64,000 bases of DNA from an uncultured Rhodospirillaceae bacterium. Lineage in GTDB: Bacteria > Pseudomonadota > Alphaproteobacteria > Dongiales > Dongiaceae. The stretch covers positions 45,512 through 109,511 of the forward strand of contig CAYPKW010000002.1 of NCBI GenBank assembly GCA_964411425.1. The letters run 5' to 3'. The position numbers were made by a program, and so were the translations under genes. This document shows positions 1,861 through 46,497 of the stretch, in pieces. The first letter of the stretch is position 1; each line of letters begins with the position of its first letter. The notes under the pieces are model-generated. The model ran no database searches and was not told the DNA's origin. It was given only the letters and a program-made list of their open reading frames with translations.

Positions 1861-2129
1861 AGAGCCTATCTCGGCCAGATGGGATCGCTCTGCCAGAGCG
1901 ATTTTCGGCAAGGGCCAGAAAGGGGCCGCAGGGCATAGCGAGCTACGGCCAAGGCCCCTGACGCCGCCCTTGCCGAAAAGCGCCTGGCCCCGAAGGGGTT
2001 TGCCGGCGGCGGGCGCCCGCGGCGTCAGAGCGTTTGCCCGATGCCCGGCATCGGGCGGCGCGCTCTTCCTGGCGGGTCGCCGCGCCGCCGAGCAAACAGA
2101 GCCGGTTCCATCTGGCCGAGATAGGCTCT
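1861..2129. repeat. about 270-bp highly structured element bounded by perfect 22-bp inverted repeats (MITE-like or giant hairpin)
   Basis: AGAGCCTATCTCGGCCAGATGG at 1861..1882 is the exact reverse complement of 2108..2129. Nested internal palindromes include ATCGCTCTG-C-CAGAGCGAT, TTTTCGGCAAGGGC/GCCCTTGCCGAAAA and GCCCGATGCC-C-GGCATCGGGC. It fills the gap between two convergent genes. Confidence 0.7.
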
Positions 2130-2138
2130 GGGTCAGCG

Positions 2139-2606
2139 TTACTTGCGCCCGACGGTCTGCATGCCGGGGAGCGTCTGCACGCTTGCCAGCGGTGGCATCG
2201 TTACCGGCTGCGGCCCGGCCTTGTCCTTCACCAGCGCCATCTTCGGGTCGACGCCCTCGCTCCGCTTGATATCGCCTTCGACATAGGCGCCCGCCTCGAT
2301 CGACAGGGTCTGATGCATGATGTTCGACAGCACCCGGGCGGTCTTAGCGAGCGTCACGGTGGTCGCCTTCACCGTCCCGCCGGAGACGGTGCCGTAGATG
2401 CGTACCGTGTCCGCCGAAAGCGAGCCGCGCACCTCGGCGCCCTCGCCCACCGTGATGCTGCGGCTGTGAATGTCGCCTTCGACGATGCCATCCACCTGGA
2501 TGTCGCCGCTGCCGACGACGTCGCCGGTAATCCGCAGGTCAGCGCTGATAATCGTCGGTGCTTGATTCTTGGCCGGCGTCTTCGCTGCATCGGGAGGAGG
2601 GGCCAT
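2139..2606 (-). CDS. bactofilin (DUF583 beta-helical cytoskeletal protein), BacA-like
   Basis: Repetitive bactofilin core (ITGDVVGSGDIQVDGIVEGDIHSRSITVGEGAEVRGSLSADTVRIYGTVSGG...) with a Pro/Ala-rich N-terminal tail. Start taken at ATG 2606 (MAPPPDAAK), 7 nt after the stop of the M23 gene. The longer ORF start at 2675 would overlap that gene. Confidence 0.85.
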   Translation of the reverse strand: MAPPPDAAKTPAKNQAPTIISADLRITGDVVGSGDIQVDGIVEGDIHSRSITVGEGAEVRGSLSADTVRIYGTVSGGTVKATTVTLAKTARVLSNIMHQTLSIEAGAYVEGDIKRSEGVDPKMALVKDKAGPQPVTMPPLASVQTLPGMQTVGRK

Positions 2607-2613
2607 GGGTCTG

Positions 2614-4395
2614 CTAACCTTTGAAAACGTATCTGCCAGCCTTGAGGAACGGCATCGGATCGCGGGGTACGCCATCCACCAGGATTTCGAAGTGGATGTG
2701 CGGCCCGGTGCTGCGGCCCGAACTGCCGAGAAGCCCGATCTTCTGCCGGTAGTCGACCACTTGTCCAGCCTTTACCGAGATTGCCTTCATGTGGCCGTAG
2801 ACGGTGCGAATCCCGAGACCATGATCGATCGTCACCGTACGGCCGTAATTGCCGCGCCATCCGGCGAACACGACCTTGCCCGGCGCCGTGCTCAAAATCG
2901 GCGTGCCGGCCGCGGCCGACAAATCGAGGCCCTCATGCACGCCCAGCCGACCGTTGAACGGGTCCTTGCGCTTACCGAACAGGCTGCTGATCGAATAATG
3001 GTCGATGGGCGCCGTCAGCGGCAACGAGCGCAGCACGAACTGCAGGCGCTCCCAACGCTCGACTTCGTCGTCGAGGCTGGCGACGCTGGCCAGCATGAGT
3101 TGCGAGAGCCCGCCCTCGGCCGCCAGAGCCGCCGGCACGAACGGACCGCCCCGGCCGGGCAGCTCGTCGGCGGCGCGGCCCAGCAGTTTGTCGACCTCGA
3201 GCCCGGTCATGGCCACCGTCTTCTCGATCAGATTGACGCCGTCGCGCGTGCGCTCGACGATGCTTTGAACGAAGTCGTCCTGCGCGCTCTCGATCACCGT
3301 CAGTCGCTCCTCGAGCTCGCCGACGCGGCCGTTCAATTCCGTGCGCGCCGCGTGCAGGGCATTGCGCTGGCCGATGACCGCGGCCAGCGCTTGCTGCGCC
3401 GCTTCGCCCTCCTGTTCCAATGTCTTCTTGTCGCCGCGGACGGCTTCCAGCTCGACGGTGAGCTGGGCCACCTGCTGTTCGAGCTGCGACTTGTCGCCGC
3501 CGACCGCGTCGAGCTGCTGCGACAGCGTCTCGGCACGCTGCTCGAGATTGGCGCGCACGTCGCGCGTGGTGTCGAGCTGGCGGCCTAGGCTGGCGATCTG
3601 GTCGTTCAGCCGCGCCTGGTTGGCAATGAAAGTGCCCTCGCTGCGCTCGGCATCGGCGAGGCGCTCGCGCAGGCTCACCAAGGTCATGGCCAGGCTGCCG
3701 TGCTGATTCGAGGCATTGTCGAGACGGCCCTGCACGTCCTCCAGTTGGCCGGCGATGCGACGGCGCATCTCGACGACACGATCGGCCTCGTCCTCCGACA
3801 GGCGAAGGCGCTCCTTCAGCTCGGCAAGGTTGCCCGTGAGCGCCTGCTCGGAAGTCTTCAGCTTATTCTTGAATTCGGCCGGGTCGGCGTTCGTCTGCCC
3901 GCTGAGGTCGAGCAGCCTGCGCAGCCCCGCCTCGTACGCCAGCGTGCCGTCGACCGACGGCGCCGTCGGATCCGACTGGATCAGCTTGCGCAGCGGGTTG
4001 GACTCCTGACGCCCGGCGGCGTCGCCGAACAGGCCCAACACGTCCGACTGCTTCTCGCCCAAGCCATCGGCCAGCCGGGCAAACTGGTCGTAGTAGTCGG
4101 CCAACTCGTTCAGCATTCCGATGTACGCCGTCTTCGCCTGATCCCGTTCGGCGTCGAGCGCGACGAGGCGGTGATCCTCGAGGATGACGCCCACCGAGGA
4201 GAAGGCCACCCAACCGACGGCGCCGACCATAGCACCGGCGAGCGCCACCTGCAGGCGCGGGGTCAAGGTGAGATAGCGAACCCGGCCTTCGGAGCGGATG
4301 AGGATTTCCCGCGCGGCGAAGACCCTTTGGACAAGACCGGACATGGTTCCCCACGTCTTCCGGATTGTCATGCTTCGCCGTCTCCCCCGTTGCAC
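2614..4395 (-). CDS. membrane-anchored coiled-coil M23 (LytM-type) metallopeptidase, LmdC-like
   Basis: N-terminal tail, one TM segment (LQVALAGAMVGAVGWVAFSSVGVIL), about 330 aa of heptad-like Q/E/L/R-rich sequence, then a C-terminal M23 domain. Metal ligands appear intact (HEGLD and GPHIHFE). Start is uncertain (4395, 4371 or 4344). Confidence 0.85.
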   Translation of the reverse strand: MQRGRRRSMTIRKTWGTMSGLVQRVFAAREILIRSEGRVRYLTLTPRLQVALAGAMVGAVGWVAFSSVGVILEDHRLVALDAERDQAKTAYIGMLNELADYYDQFARLADGLGEKQSDVLGLFGDAAGRQESNPLRKLIQSDPTAPSVDGTLAYEAGLRRLLDLSGQTNADPAEFKNKLKTSEQALTGNLAELKERLRLSEDEADRVVEMRRRIAGQLEDVQGRLDNASNQHGSLAMTLVSLRERLADAERSEGTFIANQARLNDQIASLGRQLDTTRDVRANLEQRAETLSQQLDAVGGDKSQLEQQVAQLTVELEAVRGDKKTLEQEGEAAQQALAAVIGQRNALHAARTELNGRVGELEERLTVIESAQDDFVQSIVERTRDGVNLIEKTVAMTGLEVDKLLGRAADELPGRGGPFVPAALAAEGGLSQLMLASVASLDDEVERWERLQFVLRSLPLTAPIDHYSISSLFGKRKDPFNGRLGVHEGLDLSAAAGTPILSTAPGKVVFAGWRGNYGRTVTIDHGLGIRTVYGHMKAISVKAGQVVDYRQKIGLLGSSGRSTGPHIHFEILVDGVPRDPMPFLKAGRYVFKG

Positions 4396-4583
4396 TGGCC
4401 TCGACGCTATCGGCCGAGACGCCGCCTCGATGACGCTAAGCTACCTGCGGCCGGTCGCGGTCGTATAAACGAACTTCCCTTTTCGATGCCACCCTGGCTT
4501 GCATCGTCGGGTCAATGCAGCCGTCGCCGTGCGGCGCCGGCCCGAGAGATCGACGGTAGCCGCACTACCGCCGACATGCAAGC

Positions 4584-4617
4584 CAAAATGCTCGTTACAA
4601 CTCAGTCGGTTAACGAG
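4584..4617 (-). terminator. candidate intrinsic terminator downstream of cysNC
   Basis: On the minus strand CTCGTTAAC-CGACTGAG-TTGTAACGAG is followed by CATTTT. It begins 10 nt after the cysNC stop codon. Confidence 0.35.
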
Positions 4618-4627
4618 TGGGATCTGG

Positions 4628-6544
4628 TCAGCGGCCGCCACTCTGTCCGAGGCCGCCGGGCGCCGCGAAGGTGCGCTCGATGTAGGCGACGATGCGCGCC
4701 ACGCACTCGGCCACCGACGAATGCGCGGTATCGACCGCCAGTTCGGGCGCTTCGGGTGCCTCATAAGGGGCCGATACGCCGGTGAACTCCGCGATCTCCC
4801 CGCGGCGCGCCTTCTTGTACAGGCCCTTGGGGTCGCGCCGCTCGCAGGTCTCCAAGTCGGCTTCCACGTAGACTTCGTGAAACAGGTCCTGGGCCGCTTC
4901 CCGGGCGCGCCGGCGGTCGGCACGGTAGGGCGAGATGAACGCGGTTATCGCGATCATGCCGGCGCCGGCGAACAGCGCGGCCACCTCGCCCACCCGGCGG
5001 ATGTTCTCGGCCCGATCGTCGGGCGAGAACCCGAGATTGGCGTTGAGCCCGTGGCGGACGTTGTCGCCGTCGAGCACGTAGACCTGGAAGCCGCGCCGGA
5101 ACAGCTCCTGCTCGACCGCCATGGCGAGGGTCGACTTGCCGGCGCCCGACAGGCCGGTGAACCACAGGACGCCGCCACGGTGGCCGTTGCGGGCGTTGCG
5201 CGCCTCGAACGTCACGCGATGCTCGACCCAGTGCAGGTTGCTCGAACGCACCGTTACCTGCTCGCGCTGGTCGGGATAGCCCTGCATGTTGATGAGGCCG
5301 CCGGCCACGATGTTGTGGCCATCCGTCAGCACGAAGCGCCCGGTGCGCGGCATGACGTGGCCCTCGTCGAGGGCGAGCAACGGGCGGGCGCGCAACACCA
5401 CGTCGGCCACGCCGTTGTGCGGCACCTCGCTGGCGGGCCGTCCGACGAGCGCGTCGGCGTCGAACGCCCGCTCGATCTCCTGGACCTCGACCGACGTCTC
5501 GCGCGTCAGCACCCGCAGCCGGTACTCCTGGCCGACCTTGAGCGGCGCCCGGCCCAGCCAGAACAGCCGGCCGCGGAACACATTGGTTTCGATCGGCGGA
5601 TGATCCTCGCGGCTCGCCAACTCGCCGCGCTCGACGAACAAAGGCTCGTCGAGGGTAATGCCGATCGACTGCCCGGCGCCGGCCTCGACGAGCGGCTGCG
5701 GCCGGTTCCACGACTCGATGCTGGCGACCCGCGCCGACTTGTTGGAGGGCGAGAACATGAGGCGGTCGCCGACGCCGAGCCGCCCGCTCTCGACGCGCCC
5801 CACCAGGATGCGCCGCTCGTCGAACTTGTAGACGTCCTGGATGGGAAGGCGCAGCGGCAAGTCCGTGGGCCGCGGCGCGGCGCGGAACCCGTCGAGCGCC
5901 TCGATGACGGTCGGCCCGTCGTACCAGCCCATGGCCGCCGAGCGATGCACGATGTTGTCGCCCTCGCGCGCCGACACCGGAATGAAATGGTCGGCGTCGA
6001 CGCCGATCCCCGCCAGGTACTTCGCGTAGGCGCCGCGGATGTCGTCGAAGCGCGCGGCGGAATGGCCCACCAAATCCATCTTGTTGACCACGACGGCGAT
6101 CTGGCGGATGCCGAGCAGATGCAAGAGGAAGCCGTGCACGCGCGACTGCTGCTGCACGCCCTGTCCCGCGTCGATCAACAGCAGCGCGGCCTCGGCGCTC
6201 GACGCGCCGGTGATCATGTTCTTGAGGAACTCGCGGTGGCCGGGCGCGTCGATGACGACGTAGTCGCGGGCCGCGGTGCGAAACCAGATCTGCGCGGTGT
6301 CGATGGTGATGCCCTGGTCGCGCTCGGCCTGGAAAGCGTCCATCAGGAAGGCCCATTCGAACGGCATGCCGCGCCGATCGCACATGGCCTGGATCGCCTC
6401 GAGCTTGCCGTCGGGCAGCGAGCCGGTGTCGTGGAACAGGCGGCCGACGAGCGTCGACTTGCCGTGGTCGACGTGACCCACGATGACGAGGCGCAGCGGC
6501 TCGCGCGGGCGGACCGCGACCGACAGCTCGACGGGGCGCGTCAT
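4628..6544 (-). CDS. cysNC: bifunctional sulfate adenylyltransferase subunit 1 / adenylylsulfate kinase
   Basis: N-terminal translational-GTPase domain (GHVDHGKSTL, DAPGH, NKMD). C-terminal APS kinase has P-loop GLSGAGKST. Start ATG 6544 overlaps the cysD stop by 1 nt (TGATG). The longer ORF to 6895 is an artefact. Confidence 0.9.
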   Translation of the reverse strand: MTRPVELSVAVRPREPLRLVIVGHVDHGKSTLVGRLFHDTGSLPDGKLEAIQAMCDRRGMPFEWAFLMDAFQAERDQGITIDTAQIWFRTAARDYVVIDAPGHREFLKNMITGASSAEAALLLIDAGQGVQQQSRVHGFLLHLLGIRQIAVVVNKMDLVGHSAARFDDIRGAYAKYLAGIGVDADHFIPVSAREGDNIVHRSAAMGWYDGPTVIEALDGFRAAPRPTDLPLRLPIQDVYKFDERRILVGRVESGRLGVGDRLMFSPSNKSARVASIESWNRPQPLVEAGAGQSIGITLDEPLFVERGELASREDHPPIETNVFRGRLFWLGRAPLKVGQEYRLRVLTRETSVEVQEIERAFDADALVGRPASEVPHNGVADVVLRARPLLALDEGHVMPRTGRFVLTDGHNIVAGGLINMQGYPDQREQVTVRSSNLHWVEHRVTFEARNARNGHRGGVLWFTGLSGAGKSTLAMAVEQELFRRGFQVYVLDGDNVRHGLNANLGFSPDDRAENIRRVGEVAALFAGAGMIAITAFISPYRADRRRAREAAQDLFHEVYVEADLETCERRDPKGLYKKARRGEIAEFTGVSAPYEAPEAPELAVDTAHSSVAECVARIVAYIERTFAAPGGLGQSGGR

Positions 6545-7338
6545 CACATGTACCCCGCCGCGCGCAGGCGCTCGAAGGCGTCCTCGGTCTCGCGGTCCAT
6601 GGCGCGCCCGGCGCGCTCCGGCGTGCGCGTCGATTCGAGCTCGGCGAGGATCTGCTCCAGGGTGGCGGCCTCGCTCGGCACCGGAAACGTTATGTCCATG
6701 TCGCCCAGCGAACGATACCGCTTGCCGTTCCTGGCGAAGTAGAGATCGACCACCGGAACGCCCTCGCGCTGCACGTAACGCCAGACGTCGAGCTCGGTCC
6801 AGTGCAGTAGCGGATGCACGCGCAGGTGCGTTCCCGCCGGCAGGTCGGTGTTGAAGTGGTCCCAGAACTCGGGCGGCTGGTCGCGGAAATCCCACTGGCC
6901 CGCGTCACCGCGCGGGCTGAAGACGCGCTCCTTGGCGCGGACGCTCTCCTCGTCGCGCCGGATGCCGGCGATGATGCCGGTGAACTTGTGCTTGGCGATC
7001 GCGGCCTTGAGCCCCCCCGTCTTGCGCGCCGCCGAGCGCGCATTGGGCGGCAGGGTCGGATCGACGGCCTCGACCGGCGGGCACGGCTCGACGACAAGGT
7101 TGAGGCCCCATTCCCCCGCGCAGCGATCGCGCAGCGCGTACATCTCCGGGAACTTCTTGCCGGTGTCGATGTGCATGACCGGGAACGGCACGCGCCCGAA
7201 GAACGCCTTCAGCCCGAGCCAGACCATGACATTGCTGTCCTTGCCCAACGACCACAGCATGGCCAGCCGCTCGACGCGGCTGAACGCCTCGCGCAAGATG
7301 TAGACGCTCTGCGATTCGAGCTGGTCGAGATGATCCAT
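6544..7338 (-). CDS. cysD: sulfate adenylyltransferase subunit 2
   Basis: PAPS-reductase/ATP-sulfurylase small-subunit pattern (SLGKDSNVM PP-loop variant, ...ARKTGGLKAAI..., RAGRAMDRE). Start taken at MDHLDQLESQS (7338). Confidence 0.9.
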   Translation of the reverse strand: MDHLDQLESQSVYILREAFSRVERLAMLWSLGKDSNVMVWLGLKAFFGRVPFPVMHIDTGKKFPEMYALRDRCAGEWGLNLVVEPCPPVEAVDPTLPPNARSAARKTGGLKAAIAKHKFTGIIAGIRRDEESVRAKERVFSPRGDAGQWDFRDQPPEFWDHFNTDLPAGTHLRVHPLLHWTELDVWRYVQREGVPVVDLYFARNGKRYRSLGDMDITFPVPSEAATLEQILAELESTRTPERAGRAMDRETEDAFERLRAAGYM

Positions 7339-7397
7339 CGAGCGAGGCGCCTGATTTGCCGGGCGGCTGCGGCGTTTACCCGCTTCGCGGCGGAAAA

Positions 7398-7763
7398 TCA
7401 ACCGCCTCGCCCGGGCGGGGGCCGGCGCCATTCAAGCACGGCGAGAAGGCAGCCGGTGTCGGTGCGCGAGTTGTGCCGGGTGCCTGGGCTGTAGCTCACG
7501 AAGTCGCCTGTGCGGAACACCGTGCCGTCGTCGTCGATGAGCTCGCCTTCGAGGACGACGAAATCCTCCATGCCCGCATGGTCGTGGGCGATGGTGACGG
7601 CGCCCGGCTGCATGCGCATGAGATAGCAGCCGTTGCCGGCGGCCCTGTCGTAGCTCACCGGCAGCCAGCCGATCTCCGGCTGCAGCGGACCTTCGAGGTC
7701 GTAGGGCAGGAACGCGGTCGAATCGGCTCTCACCACCTTCCGCCCCGCCACTTTCCTCTCCAT
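7398..7763 (-). CDS. stand-alone cupin protein resembling the C-terminal cupin of ChrR-type anti-sigma factors
   Basis: Cupin motif HDHAGMEDFVVLEGELIDDDG...GDFVSYSPGTRH. It is only 121 aa and has no N-terminal zinc-binding anti-sigma (ZAS) domain. It is divergent from the bufferin-type operon. Confidence 0.6.
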   Translation of the reverse strand: MERKVAGRKVVRADSTAFLPYDLEGPLQPEIGWLPVSYDRAAGNGCYLMRMQPGAVTIAHDHAGMEDFVVLEGELIDDDGTVFRTGDFVSYSPGTRHNSRTDTGCLLAVLEWRRPPPGRGG

Positions 7764-45392: not shown

Positions 45393-46497
45393 CGCCGGCA
45401 GCGAAGGCACCGGCGCCTTGCTCACCATCGACTTGGCGGCGCTCGCCGCCAACTATCGGCTGCTGCGCGCGCGGGCGCCCGCGGCCGAATGCGCCGCCGT
45501 CGTGAAGGCCGACGCCTACGGCCTCGGCATGGCGGCGGTGGCGCCGGAACTGGCGGCGGCCGGGTGCCGGACCTTCTTCGTCGCCACGCTCGACGAGGGC
45601 ATGGCGCTGCGCCGCCTGCTGCCGCAGGCCGTCGTTTACGTGCTCAACGGCACCGCCTGTGGCGGCGGCGAGGAGATGGCGCAGAGCGCGCTCCGCCCCG
45701 TGCTCAACAGCCTTCCGGAGATGGACGAGTGGGCGGCGCAACCCGGCCGACCGGCGGCCGCGCTGCACATCGACACCGGGCTCAATCGCCTCGGGCTGTC
45801 GGACCAGGAGGTGACGGTCCTGGCGGGCGACCGCCGCGGCCTCGATCGCGTGGCCGTCGACCTCGTGCTCAGTCACCTGGCGGCGGCGGACGAGCCGTCG
45901 CATCCCTTGAACCGCGCCCAGCTCACGCGCTTCGAGGCGGCGCTAGCCCGGCTGTTCCCGGACCCGGCCCGCCGACCGCGGCTGAGCCTCGCCGCTTCCT
46001 CGGGCATCTTTCTCGGAGCGGACTACTGTTTCGAGCTGACCCGGCCGGGAGCCTCGATGTACGGCATCTCGCCCTTCGCAGAGGGCGCGAACCCGATGGC
46101 GCAAGTCGCGCGTCTGCAAGGAAGAATCCTCCAGACGCGCGACATTGACACAGGCGGGACCGTTGGCTATGGTGCGACCTACCGCGCGACCCGCGCGACG
46201 CGCGTGGCGACGGTGGCCGTCGGTTACGCCGACGGCTATTTTCGTTCGCTCGGCAATCGGGGGGGAGCCCATATCGGCGGACAGCGGTTTCCCGTCGTAG
46301 GGCGCGTATCCATGGATTTGATCACCCTCGATGTGACGGACGCGCCGCAAGCCTGTCCGGGCGCGTTCGTAGACCTAATCGGACCCGATAACCCGGTCGA
46401 CGCCGTGGCCGCCGAGGCAGGCACCAACGGATACGAACTGTTGGCGCGCATGGGCGTCCGCATTCGGCGCCGCTACGTGAACGCCGGCACGCCGTGA
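45379..46497 (+). CDS. alr: alanine racemase
   Basis: PLP-lysine motif AVVKADAYGLG and C-terminal YELL...RRY. It overlaps the dnaB end by 14 nt. Confidence 0.9.
   Translation: MPSTDAGSEGTGALLTIDLAALAANYRLLRARAPAAECAAVVKADAYGLGMAAVAPELAAAGCRTFFVATLDEGMALRRLLPQAVVYVLNGTACGGGEEMAQSALRPVLNSLPEMDEWAAQPGRPAAALHIDTGLNRLGLSDQEVTVLAGDRRGLDRVAVDLVLSHLAAADEPSHPLNRAQLTRFEAALARLFPDPARRPRLSLAASSGIFLGADYCFELTRPGASMYGISPFAEGANPMAQVARLQGRILQTRDIDTGGTVGYGATYRATRATRVATVAVGYADGYFRSLGNRGGAHIGGQRFPVVGRVSMDLITLDVTDAPQACPGAFVDLIGPDNPVDAVAAEAGTNGYELLARMGVRIRRRYVNAGTP

Follow-up and report, generated by a model that had tools for sequence, protein, structure and literature searches.

An LmdC–BacA-type peptidase–bactofilin gene pair in an uncultured Dongiaceae alphaproteobacterium, with a bactofilin that has probably lost its membrane-targeting start

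We analyzed two adjacent genes, lmdC and bacA, in a 64,000-nt window (the whole stretch of DNA under study, positions 45,512 to 109,511 of contig CAYPKW010000002.1 in GenBank assembly GCA_964411425.1) from an uncultured alphaproteobacterium. The source genome, here called G000, is a 3.0-Mb metagenome-assembled genome (MAG) in 164 contigs, and its host is a Dongiaceae lineage with a genus of its own. Two tightly packed open reading frames (ORFs) fill positions 2139-4395 of the minus strand, both where the initial annotation had placed them: the first encodes an M23 peptidase (LmdC) and the second a bactofilin (BacA), and the two are predicted to form a bicistronic operon. The features of the locus are listed below, with LmdC residues numbered according to its 576-aa form (ATG 4344) and with structural evidence taken from an AlphaFold2 (AF2) model and its per-residue confidence (predicted local distance difference test, pLDDT).

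2614..4395, minus strand: lmdC, encoding a homologue of bitopic coiled-coil M23 (LytM) DD-endopeptidases (ORF list, Pfam, 90 homologues, AF2)
4264..4311, minus strand: cytoplasmic β-hairpin, residues 12-27 (REILIRS-EG-RVRYLTL), a predicted bactofilin-docking motif (AF2, conservation)
4180..4254, minus strand: single transmembrane (TM) helix, residues 31-55 (Kyte-Doolittle, charge distribution, AF2 helix)
3163..4179, minus strand: periplasmic helical/coiled-coil stalk (DUF5930 region), residues 56-394 (AF2, Pfam, heptad-like hydrophobic a/d windows)
3145..3150, minus strand: Gly399-Gly400 (GGP motif), candidate auto-processing site some 50 residues ahead of the M23 domain, in a linker modeled as disordered
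2617..2994, minus strand: M23/LytM catalytic domain and C-terminal helix, residues 451-576 (Pfam, PDB matches, invariant columns, pLDDT)
2607..2630, minus strand: relic of the bactofilin membrane-targeting sequence (MTS), T-F-S-K-V-S-R-P, read from ACG-TTT-TCA-AAG-GTT-AGC-AGA-CCC (junction comparison with relatives)
2139..2606, minus strand: bacA, bactofilin of 155 aa from ATG 2606 (MAPPPDAAK...; Pfam PF04519, PDB 2N3D)
4396..4627, minus strand: 232-nt intergenic stretch separating cysNC from lmdC, the presumed seat of the operon promoter (ORF map)

Counted from GTG 4395, the lmdC ORF comprises 593 aa. Other possible starts are ATG 4371 (585 aa), which has the best Shine-Dalgarno sequence (GGGGAGA, 9-nt spacer), and ATG 4344 (576 aa), which is the form found in public gene calls (P0001). 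Exactly 7 nt lie between the lmdC stop codon (TAG 2614-2616) and the bacA ATG 2606, and a promoter/terminator scan revealed neither a promoter-like nor a same-strand terminator-like site between the two genes. A sigma-70-like match was likewise absent from the 232-nt region upstream of lmdC in the promoter scan. Both flanks are unrelated to the pair by Pfam, with cysD and cysNC upstream and a convergent gene for a PALP enzyme downstream.

Pfam searches with LmdC returned Peptidase_M23 (7.7e-32), DUF5930 (PF19353; 4.6e-12, 46.1 bits against a cut-off of 27), and several coiled-coil families. We retrieved 90 homologues, nearly all of which combine DUF5930 with M23, and the closest of which are merely 59-66% identical. 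The AF2 model, built on 73 homologues (mean pLDDT 73.8), shows long helices at residues 29-106, 155-211, 220-278, and 285-379, followed by a further helix at 412-440 and a C-terminal helix; the stalk accordingly comprises helices 56-106, 155-211, 220-278, and 285-379. The sole 19-residue Kyte-Doolittle windows above 1.6 lie at residues 31-55 (mean 1.86), and the charge pattern is positive-inside, with a net charge of +4 in the N-terminal tail and an acidic stretch after the TM helix. Pfam, hydropathy, and the model thus bear out the bitopic, coiled-coil M23 protein of 593 aa that had been read from the sequence at the outset. The catalytic domain (residues 451-561) was modeled with a pLDDT above 90 and has PDB matches to TagE (1.8e-26), Csd3-type enzymes, ShyA, and lysostaphin. 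Its HxxxD and HxH motifs line up with the active motifs of solved M23 enzymes, and the zinc ligands, already described as intact, belong to a catalytic set whose five residues are invariant across the 73 homologues: HEGLD (H470, D474), YGHM (H518, catalytic), and HIHFE (H549, H551). LmdC is therefore predicted to be a catalytically intact LytM/M23 peptidase.

The LmdC clade has been defined by an N-terminal TM helix, coiled coils, and an active LytM domain (Figueroa-Cuilan 2021; PMC8416486), and in alphaproteobacteria other than Rhizobiales it carries DUF5930 too (PMC8416486). All of these features, i.e., the N-terminal TM helix, the coiled coil with DUF5930, and the intact LytM domain, are present in the window protein. 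The source genome has a single DUF5930 locus, and of 14 control genomes Caulobacter alone gave a match to the family.

The cytoplasmic tail links this protein to bactofilins. In the AF2 model, residues 12-18 and 21-27 form the two strands of a hairpin (pLDDT about 80). Comparison of the tail across the 73 homologues, a check proposed with the initial annotation, revealed a conserved hairpin motif, F-x-x-R-E-[IL]-[IL]-[IL]-R-[ST]-x-G-R, with R12 and R17 unchanged in all sequences and E13 and G20 at least 90% conserved. In LmdC of Rhodospirillum rubrum, where the hairpin binds BacA, mutation of the R25/H26/L27 and R30/S31 clusters abolishes BacA-dependent localization (PMC10945521), and the R-x-(L/I)-x-x-R-S spacing of the window hairpin equals the spacing of these residues. 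LmdC of Hyphomonas neptunium acts as a DD-endopeptidase and binds BacA through a cytoplasmic tail of 38 residues, with a dissociation constant of about 15 µM, and adjacent bactofilin and M23 genes have been found in 226 species (PMC10945521).

H. neptunium (HNE_2630?/HNE_2629, the former tag being tentative) and R. rubrum (Rru_A1868/Rru_A1867) both carry lmdC followed by bacA in one operon, as is likewise the case here (Pöhl et al. 2024, eLife; PMC10945521); R. rubrum, and not Rhodomicrobium as first stated, is the second organism of that study. Their LmdC proteins are built like ours: a short tail with a hairpin and a single TM helix precede about three segments of coiled coil, which lead to an active M23 domain (PMC10945521). 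Judged by these sequence features, the window pair is orthologous to the morphogenetic LmdC–BacA module described in H. neptunium and R. rubrum. The module itself is already known, having been published in 2024, and is widespread, so the window copy is a further member of it. It differs from the two described systems in its host, a Dongiaceae bacterium, and in the lmdC/bacA junction: the MFSK start of bacA is mutated from ATG to ACG, the two genes are 7 nt apart, and BacA probably lacks an MTS.

We infer interactions, localization, and enzymatic specificity of the pair as follows. BacA would form nucleotide-independent polymers at the inner membrane, on its cytoplasmic side, and the short N-terminal β-hairpin of LmdC would dock onto the BacA polymer. 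Docking would set the sites at which the M23 DD-endopeptidase, mounted in the periplasm on its coiled coil, cleaves peptidoglycan cross-links, leading to local wall remodeling. LmdC molecules off the scaffold may be inactivated by self-cleavage at Gly399-Gly400, as has been reported for P. aeruginosa LmdC. The role in localized peptidoglycan remodeling that had been proposed for the pair is supported by the clade architecture, the hairpin, and the tight family-wide linkage of the two genes.

With regard to the Gly-Gly motif, a 2026 preprint reports that LmdC of P. aeruginosa undergoes self-cleavage at a Gly-Gly located between helices, in a segment without structure, that bactofilin together with Api inhibits this self-cleavage, and that most LmdC-clade proteins possess such a site (bioRxiv 10.64898/2026.10.09.758143). 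In the window protein, G399, G400, and P401 are invariant across the 73 homologues, and the linker around them (residues 395-411) is non-helical in the AF2 model, with pLDDT values of 51-58. By analogy, G399-G400 is likely the equivalent of the P. aeruginosa cleavage site. The P. aeruginosa LmdC–Baf–Api system has the same clade architecture, with Gly-Gly in an unstructured linker before the M23 domain; however, its LmdC is much shorter and its lmdC gene is unlinked to baf (bioRxiv 10.64898/2026.10.09.758143). We also observed an internal coiled-coil repeat at residues 279-308 (window 3420-3510; AVGGDKSQLEQQ / AVRGDKKTLEQE), the first copy of which falls on the AF2 helix break at 279-284 and on a second, non-conserved Gly-Gly.

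Two further systems offer partial parallels. In C. crescentus, the BacA client PbpC docks via its cytoplasmic N-terminal tail, as we propose for LmdC (PMC12448750); that client is a PBP1A-type synthase, whereas the window client is a hydrolase. In H. pylori, the LmdC-clade M23 peptidases Csd1/Csd2 are tied genetically and functionally to the bactofilin CcmA, which patterns peptidoglycan remodeling, but the link passes through the extra membrane proteins Csd5 and Csd7, and Csd1/Csd2 lack the long DUF5930 coiled-coil stalk.

BacA itself is a canonical bactofilin in its core: Pfam Bactofilin (PF04519) was matched at 5.6e-21, PDB entries 2N3D (C. crescentus BacA) and 6RIA at 2.9e-18 and 2.9e-09, respectively, and the β-helix domain spans residues 18-113 (window 2268-2555). 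In the C-terminal tail, a strain-level indel distinguishes the window (PQPVTMPP, 2170-2200) from a nearly identical metagenome contig, L110 (PQPVTPVTMPP, 2440-2480), which has a 9-nt tandem duplication (PVT). The N-terminus is less conventional. In C. crescentus BacA, which begins MFSKQAKS, Met1, Phe2, Lys4, and Lys7 mediate membrane binding, and the global MTS consensus of bactofilins is MFSKKKK (PMC12448750). Read from ATG 2606, the window BacA has no hydrophobic residue 2 and neither Lys4 nor Lys7; a canonical MTS would be present only if translation were initiated at the upstream ACG.

A comparison of junctions shows how this N-terminus arose. At 27 of 29 other family loci, bacA starts with ATGTTTTCAAAGG, i.e., ATG-TTT-TCA-AA(G/R)-G, encoding MFSK or MFSR. 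This start lies within the last lmdC codons (..R-Y-V-F-K-G-stop), 24 nt upstream of the position of ATG 2606, and creates a 17-nt overlap that encodes LmdC YVFKG* in one frame and BacA MFSK in another. Four of four genomes representing as many further families of the class also have an MFSK, MFSR, or MFSS start inside the lmdC end, and the bacA genes of metagenome contigs L111 and L162 likewise begin with MFS[KRS]. The overlap of H. neptunium lmdC and bacA is 17 nt as well (PMC10945521), and the MFSK(G/A/V)S start of the Dongiaceae relatives resembles the MFSKQAKS of C. crescentus. A strict DNA pattern for the junction (GGNMRNTATGTTTTCAARGGNTAR) identified 95 stretches in a collection of species-representative genomes, nearly all of Dongiaceae or Rhodospirillales type. 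Dual coding of these 17 nt explains why the C-terminus of LmdC (A569, G570, F574, K575) and the N-terminus of BacA are both nearly invariant, and it is also why gene callers often mis-start bacA. As an aside, contigs in SMAG bins labeled Verrucomicrobiia, Candidatus Acidoferrum, and others (L016, L071, among others) are 100% identical to Dongiaceae family loci; these labels are probably due to mis-binning.

In the window, the junction reads AGA-TAC-GTT-TTC-AAA-GGT-TAG. The ancestral TAT has become TAC, which is synonymous in lmdC, and in the bacA frame the same substitution (C at 2629) turns the ancestral ATG into ACG at 2628-2630. The eight relic codons, of which this ACG is the first, run in frame into ATG 2606 (MAPPPDAAK). 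ATG is kept in the nearest lineages, i.e., L111 (MFSKVSKPMAPPPE), L162 (MFSKVSKTMAPPAE), and the genome G014 (MFSKASKTMAPQPE); in each of them, the Met codon that opens the window bacA ORF occurs internally. A maximum-likelihood tree of the C-terminal 330 residues of LmdC gave the topology (G002,(L111,(G000,G014))), with support values of 84/85 and 100/98. In G002 the overlap is gone, a 41-nt spacer separates the genes, and BacA begins with MAPPPENPK; two G002-like metagenome contigs (carrying P0006 and P0007) have lmdC–bacA spacers of 28 and 39 nt. Under this topology, G000 and G002 must have lost the MFSK start in two independent events. The 155-aa bacA ORF as read here is thus, in the light of its relatives, a derived state: its position 7 nt past the lmdC stop and its family were correctly given by the initial annotation, which overlooked the loss of the ancestral MFSK start overlapping lmdC.

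With ACG in place of ATG, BacA probably starts eight codons later and lacks the membrane anchor. Coupled re-initiation at ATG 2606, giving a BacA without membrane anchor, is the most likely outcome, and we favor it with some reserve. There is a precedent for such a protein: in C. crescentus, overproduction of the membrane-anchored client PbpC makes up fully for a missing BacA MTS (PMC12448750), although there the MTS was removed by engineering, whereas its loss in the window is natural. Membrane attachment of the window BacA would come from its clients (LmdC and possibly a hairpin-bearing lytic transglycosylase paralogue described below) or from co-assembly with a second, MFRKK-bearing bactofilin. 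For the locus as a whole, we consider an LmdC–BacA module, whose BacA most likely re-initiates without its membrane-targeting peptide, to be a well-supported and probable explanation.

Several points weigh against this explanation. ATG 2606 has a mediocre Shine-Dalgarno sequence (AAGG, 11-nt spacer), the two assemblies with ACG may go back to the same or related samples, and weak near-cognate initiation at ACG could yield fMet-FSK... and thereby keep the MTS. The likeness of LmdC to the H. neptunium and R. rubrum proteins was judged by the residue numbers and spacing quoted in PMC10945521, and the Gly-Gly site was assigned from its position and invariance. Furthermore, an in-frame ATG is present upstream at 2675 (MAYPAIR; 178-aa bacA ORF). 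We rejected it as the bacA start: its Shine-Dalgarno sequence is poor (GGTGG abutting the ATG), its frame is stopped in the nearest relative L111, and such an extension occurs in no relative.

Among the alternatives, initiation at ACG fares best, if still as an unlikely one. Ribosomes terminating or queuing at the lmdC end would initiate at ACG (2628-2630), decoded as fMet, and make MFSKVSRPMAPPP...; the module would then be canonical throughout, with a BacA output that is lower or tuned differently. The eight relic codons are indeed intact and would encode FSKVSRP, in which Phe2 and Lys4 are conserved and Lys7 is conservatively replaced by Arg, the purine-rich stretch that precedes the relatives' ATG is retained, and the change is very recent, since the closest relatives L111, L162, and G014 still have ATG. 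However, most relic codons are fixed by the overlapping lmdC frame (YVFKG*) anyway, so that their integrity says little. In bacteria, ACG is a very poor start codon, as known from E. coli reporter studies. A good ATG is available 7 nt past the lmdC stop, is common to the whole subclade (MAPP...), and was chosen in the gene calls of L110 and L111; and a second lineage (G002 and the contigs P0006/P0007, with spacers of 28-39 nt) does without any overlap.

It is very improbable that ACG arose as an artefact of consensus calling or assembly while the true population has ATG. The window does come from a 164-contig MAG, but a separate contig from a Joint Genome Institute (JGI) metagenome, L110 (sample 3300010391), which is 99.57% identical over 4.6 kb and differs by 9 mismatches and 3 indels, carries the identical ...AGATACGTTTTCAAAGG... 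with the same ACG. Since L110 was assembled separately and differs elsewhere, a simple assembly slip is unlikely.

We give next to no credit to the view that the M23 protein is a general or divisome factor (an EnvC/DipM-like amidase activator or a MepM-like space-maker) beside which the bactofilin is inherited synteny: EnvC and DipM do combine a coiled coil (or LysM) with a C-terminal LytM fold, partial NCBIfam matches to MepM, ShyA, EnvC, and DipM exist, and an LmdC knock-out in A. tumefaciens has no phenotype (PMC8416486), but every NCBIfam match covers the M23 domain only and falls far under its cut-off (EnvC model, 53.7 bits against 270), the active sites of EnvC and DipM are degenerate whereas LmdC has its five invariant catalytic residues, EnvC and DipM have a signal peptide and neither DUF5930 nor bactofilin linkage whereas LmdC has the TM anchor together with DUF5930 and a hairpin specific to LmdC, at least five families retain the 17-nt stretch that codes for both lmdC and bacA, and the genome holds other M23 paralogues for such roles.

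Cultured Dongia species are plain rods, neither stalked nor spiral. A search with BacA gave a match in 72 of the 83 genomes of the GTDB family, lmdC is directly followed by bacA in each of the 29 other family loci that this query retrieved, and the adjacency was also found in four genomes of four other families of the class. LmdC orthologues exist in almost all surveyed proteobacteria, and the lmdC knock-out of A. tumefaciens lacks a shape phenotype (PMC8416486). A functional LmdC–bactofilin link has furthermore been described in the rod-shaped P. aeruginosa (bioRxiv 10.64898/2026.10.09.758143). With so widespread a clade, no shape phenotype in A. tumefaciens, and rods in both P. aeruginosa and Dongia, the pair does not predict a complex morphology. 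The initial suggestion of a curved, stalked, or budding cell is accordingly weak, as simple rods carry the pair and all 29 other Dongiaceae bacA loci have it.

Searching the family with LmdC led to a second hairpin-bearing hydrolase. On contig C88 of G000 (L151 1613..2848, minus strand; P0091), a gene for 404-411 aa joins an LmdC-like N-terminal module with an SLT lytic transglycosylase. Homology to LmdC extends over the first 220 residues of the encoded protein, which comprise the hairpin (FRPREVFLRTDGRMRRLVLSRRLQ), the TM helix, a juxtamembrane helix, and the first coiled coil (BLASTP 7e-12; profile-profile comparison by hhalign with a probability of 99.9%, E 1.5e-33, over 222 columns), while its C-terminus is an Slt70-type lytic transglycosylase (PF01464, 5.9e-26). 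Full-length chimeras were present in only 3 of 31 relatives, i.e., G000, G014, and G002, which belong to one subclade, and no bactofilin gene lies beside the chimera in any of these three genomes. An exhaustive search of 1.84 billion representative proteins, with 44,095 SLT matches overall, yielded about five further full-length chimeras, all of them hairpin-bearing; P0094, P0095, and P0164 are among the chimera representatives. A word-indexed search with the N-terminal 118 residues gave no match beyond the chimera itself, and our literature search found no paper describing a hairpin–SLT chimera. On these grounds the protein is a candidate for a second bactofilin client, and nothing more.

A more far-reaching reading holds that in this Dongiaceae subclade the bactofilin has become a scaffold without membrane anchor, held at the membrane by its clients alone, and that the fusion of the LmdC N-module with SLT is the second client; we offer it as tentative and rather doubtful. 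Within this reading, the MFSK start would have been lost twice (by ATG to ACG and by loss of the overlap in the G002-like lineage), after the internal Met start had been acquired. As G000, G014, and G002 form one clade, the co-occurrence of the chimera with the MTS change counts as a single evolutionary event and not as a correlation.

The second bactofilin, of 232 aa, is encoded on contig C18 of G000 (L002 1372-2070, minus strand). Its N-terminus, MFRKKNETHE, resembles a canonical MTS, and its Pro-rich tail is 90 residues long. A lipoprotein-like ORF of 127 aa without Pfam match (L002 978-1361, minus strand) follows the gene at a distance of 10 nt.

Another SLT-related observation concerns a roughly 700-aa Slt70-like lytic transglycosylase (SLT and SLT_superhelical), which in most Dongiaceae genomes is encoded one to four genes beyond bacA in convergent orientation:
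G000 contig C2, 44210-44728, plus strand: Slt70-like gene, just before the window start
L162, 3920-4858: Slt70-like gene
L110, 5359-6004: Slt70-like gene
The catalytic domains of this enzyme and of the hairpin–SLT chimera share 53% identity, and PF27553 in the precomputed annotations corresponds to SLT_superhelical (gene table). We considered a link of this gene to the lmdC–bacA operon and rejected it, as the gene is convergent and one to four unrelated genes apart from bacA; we regard its position as family synteny only.

Regarding the remaining neighborhood, cysD (PAPS_reduct-type) and a fused cysN/cysC (GTPase and adenosine phosphosulfate kinase) lie directly upstream of lmdC on the minus strand (window 4628-7431), and the gene order cysD-cysNC-lmdC-bacA-PALP is common to related metagenome contigs. 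The gap between the convergent bacA and PALP genes is occupied by a 269-bp element with 22-bp terminal inverted repeats (window 1861-2129), which may have a double role as terminator of both.

Three points about this locus are worth keeping: the lost MTS start codon, the conserved dual-coding junction, and the rare fusion of the LmdC N-module to SLT. The conserved 17-nt overlap is relevant for the annotation of bacA starts. A wild BacA that probably lacks its MTS would be the natural counterpart of the engineered ΔMTS BacA that is rescued by a client in Caulobacter, and would show whether client tethering suffices in vivo; if the client-held scaffold is real, client binding alone suffices for membrane association of a bactofilin in nature. 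The fusion suggests that the β-hairpin tail may be a transferable address label for bactofilin scaffolds, and an SLT client would extend the known client range from M23 peptidases and penicillin-binding proteins to lytic transglycosylases. If this holds true, the LmdC-type hairpin, TM helix, and coiled coil would constitute a portable bactofilin-docking module that brings either an endopeptidase or a glycan-strand cutter to one scaffold.

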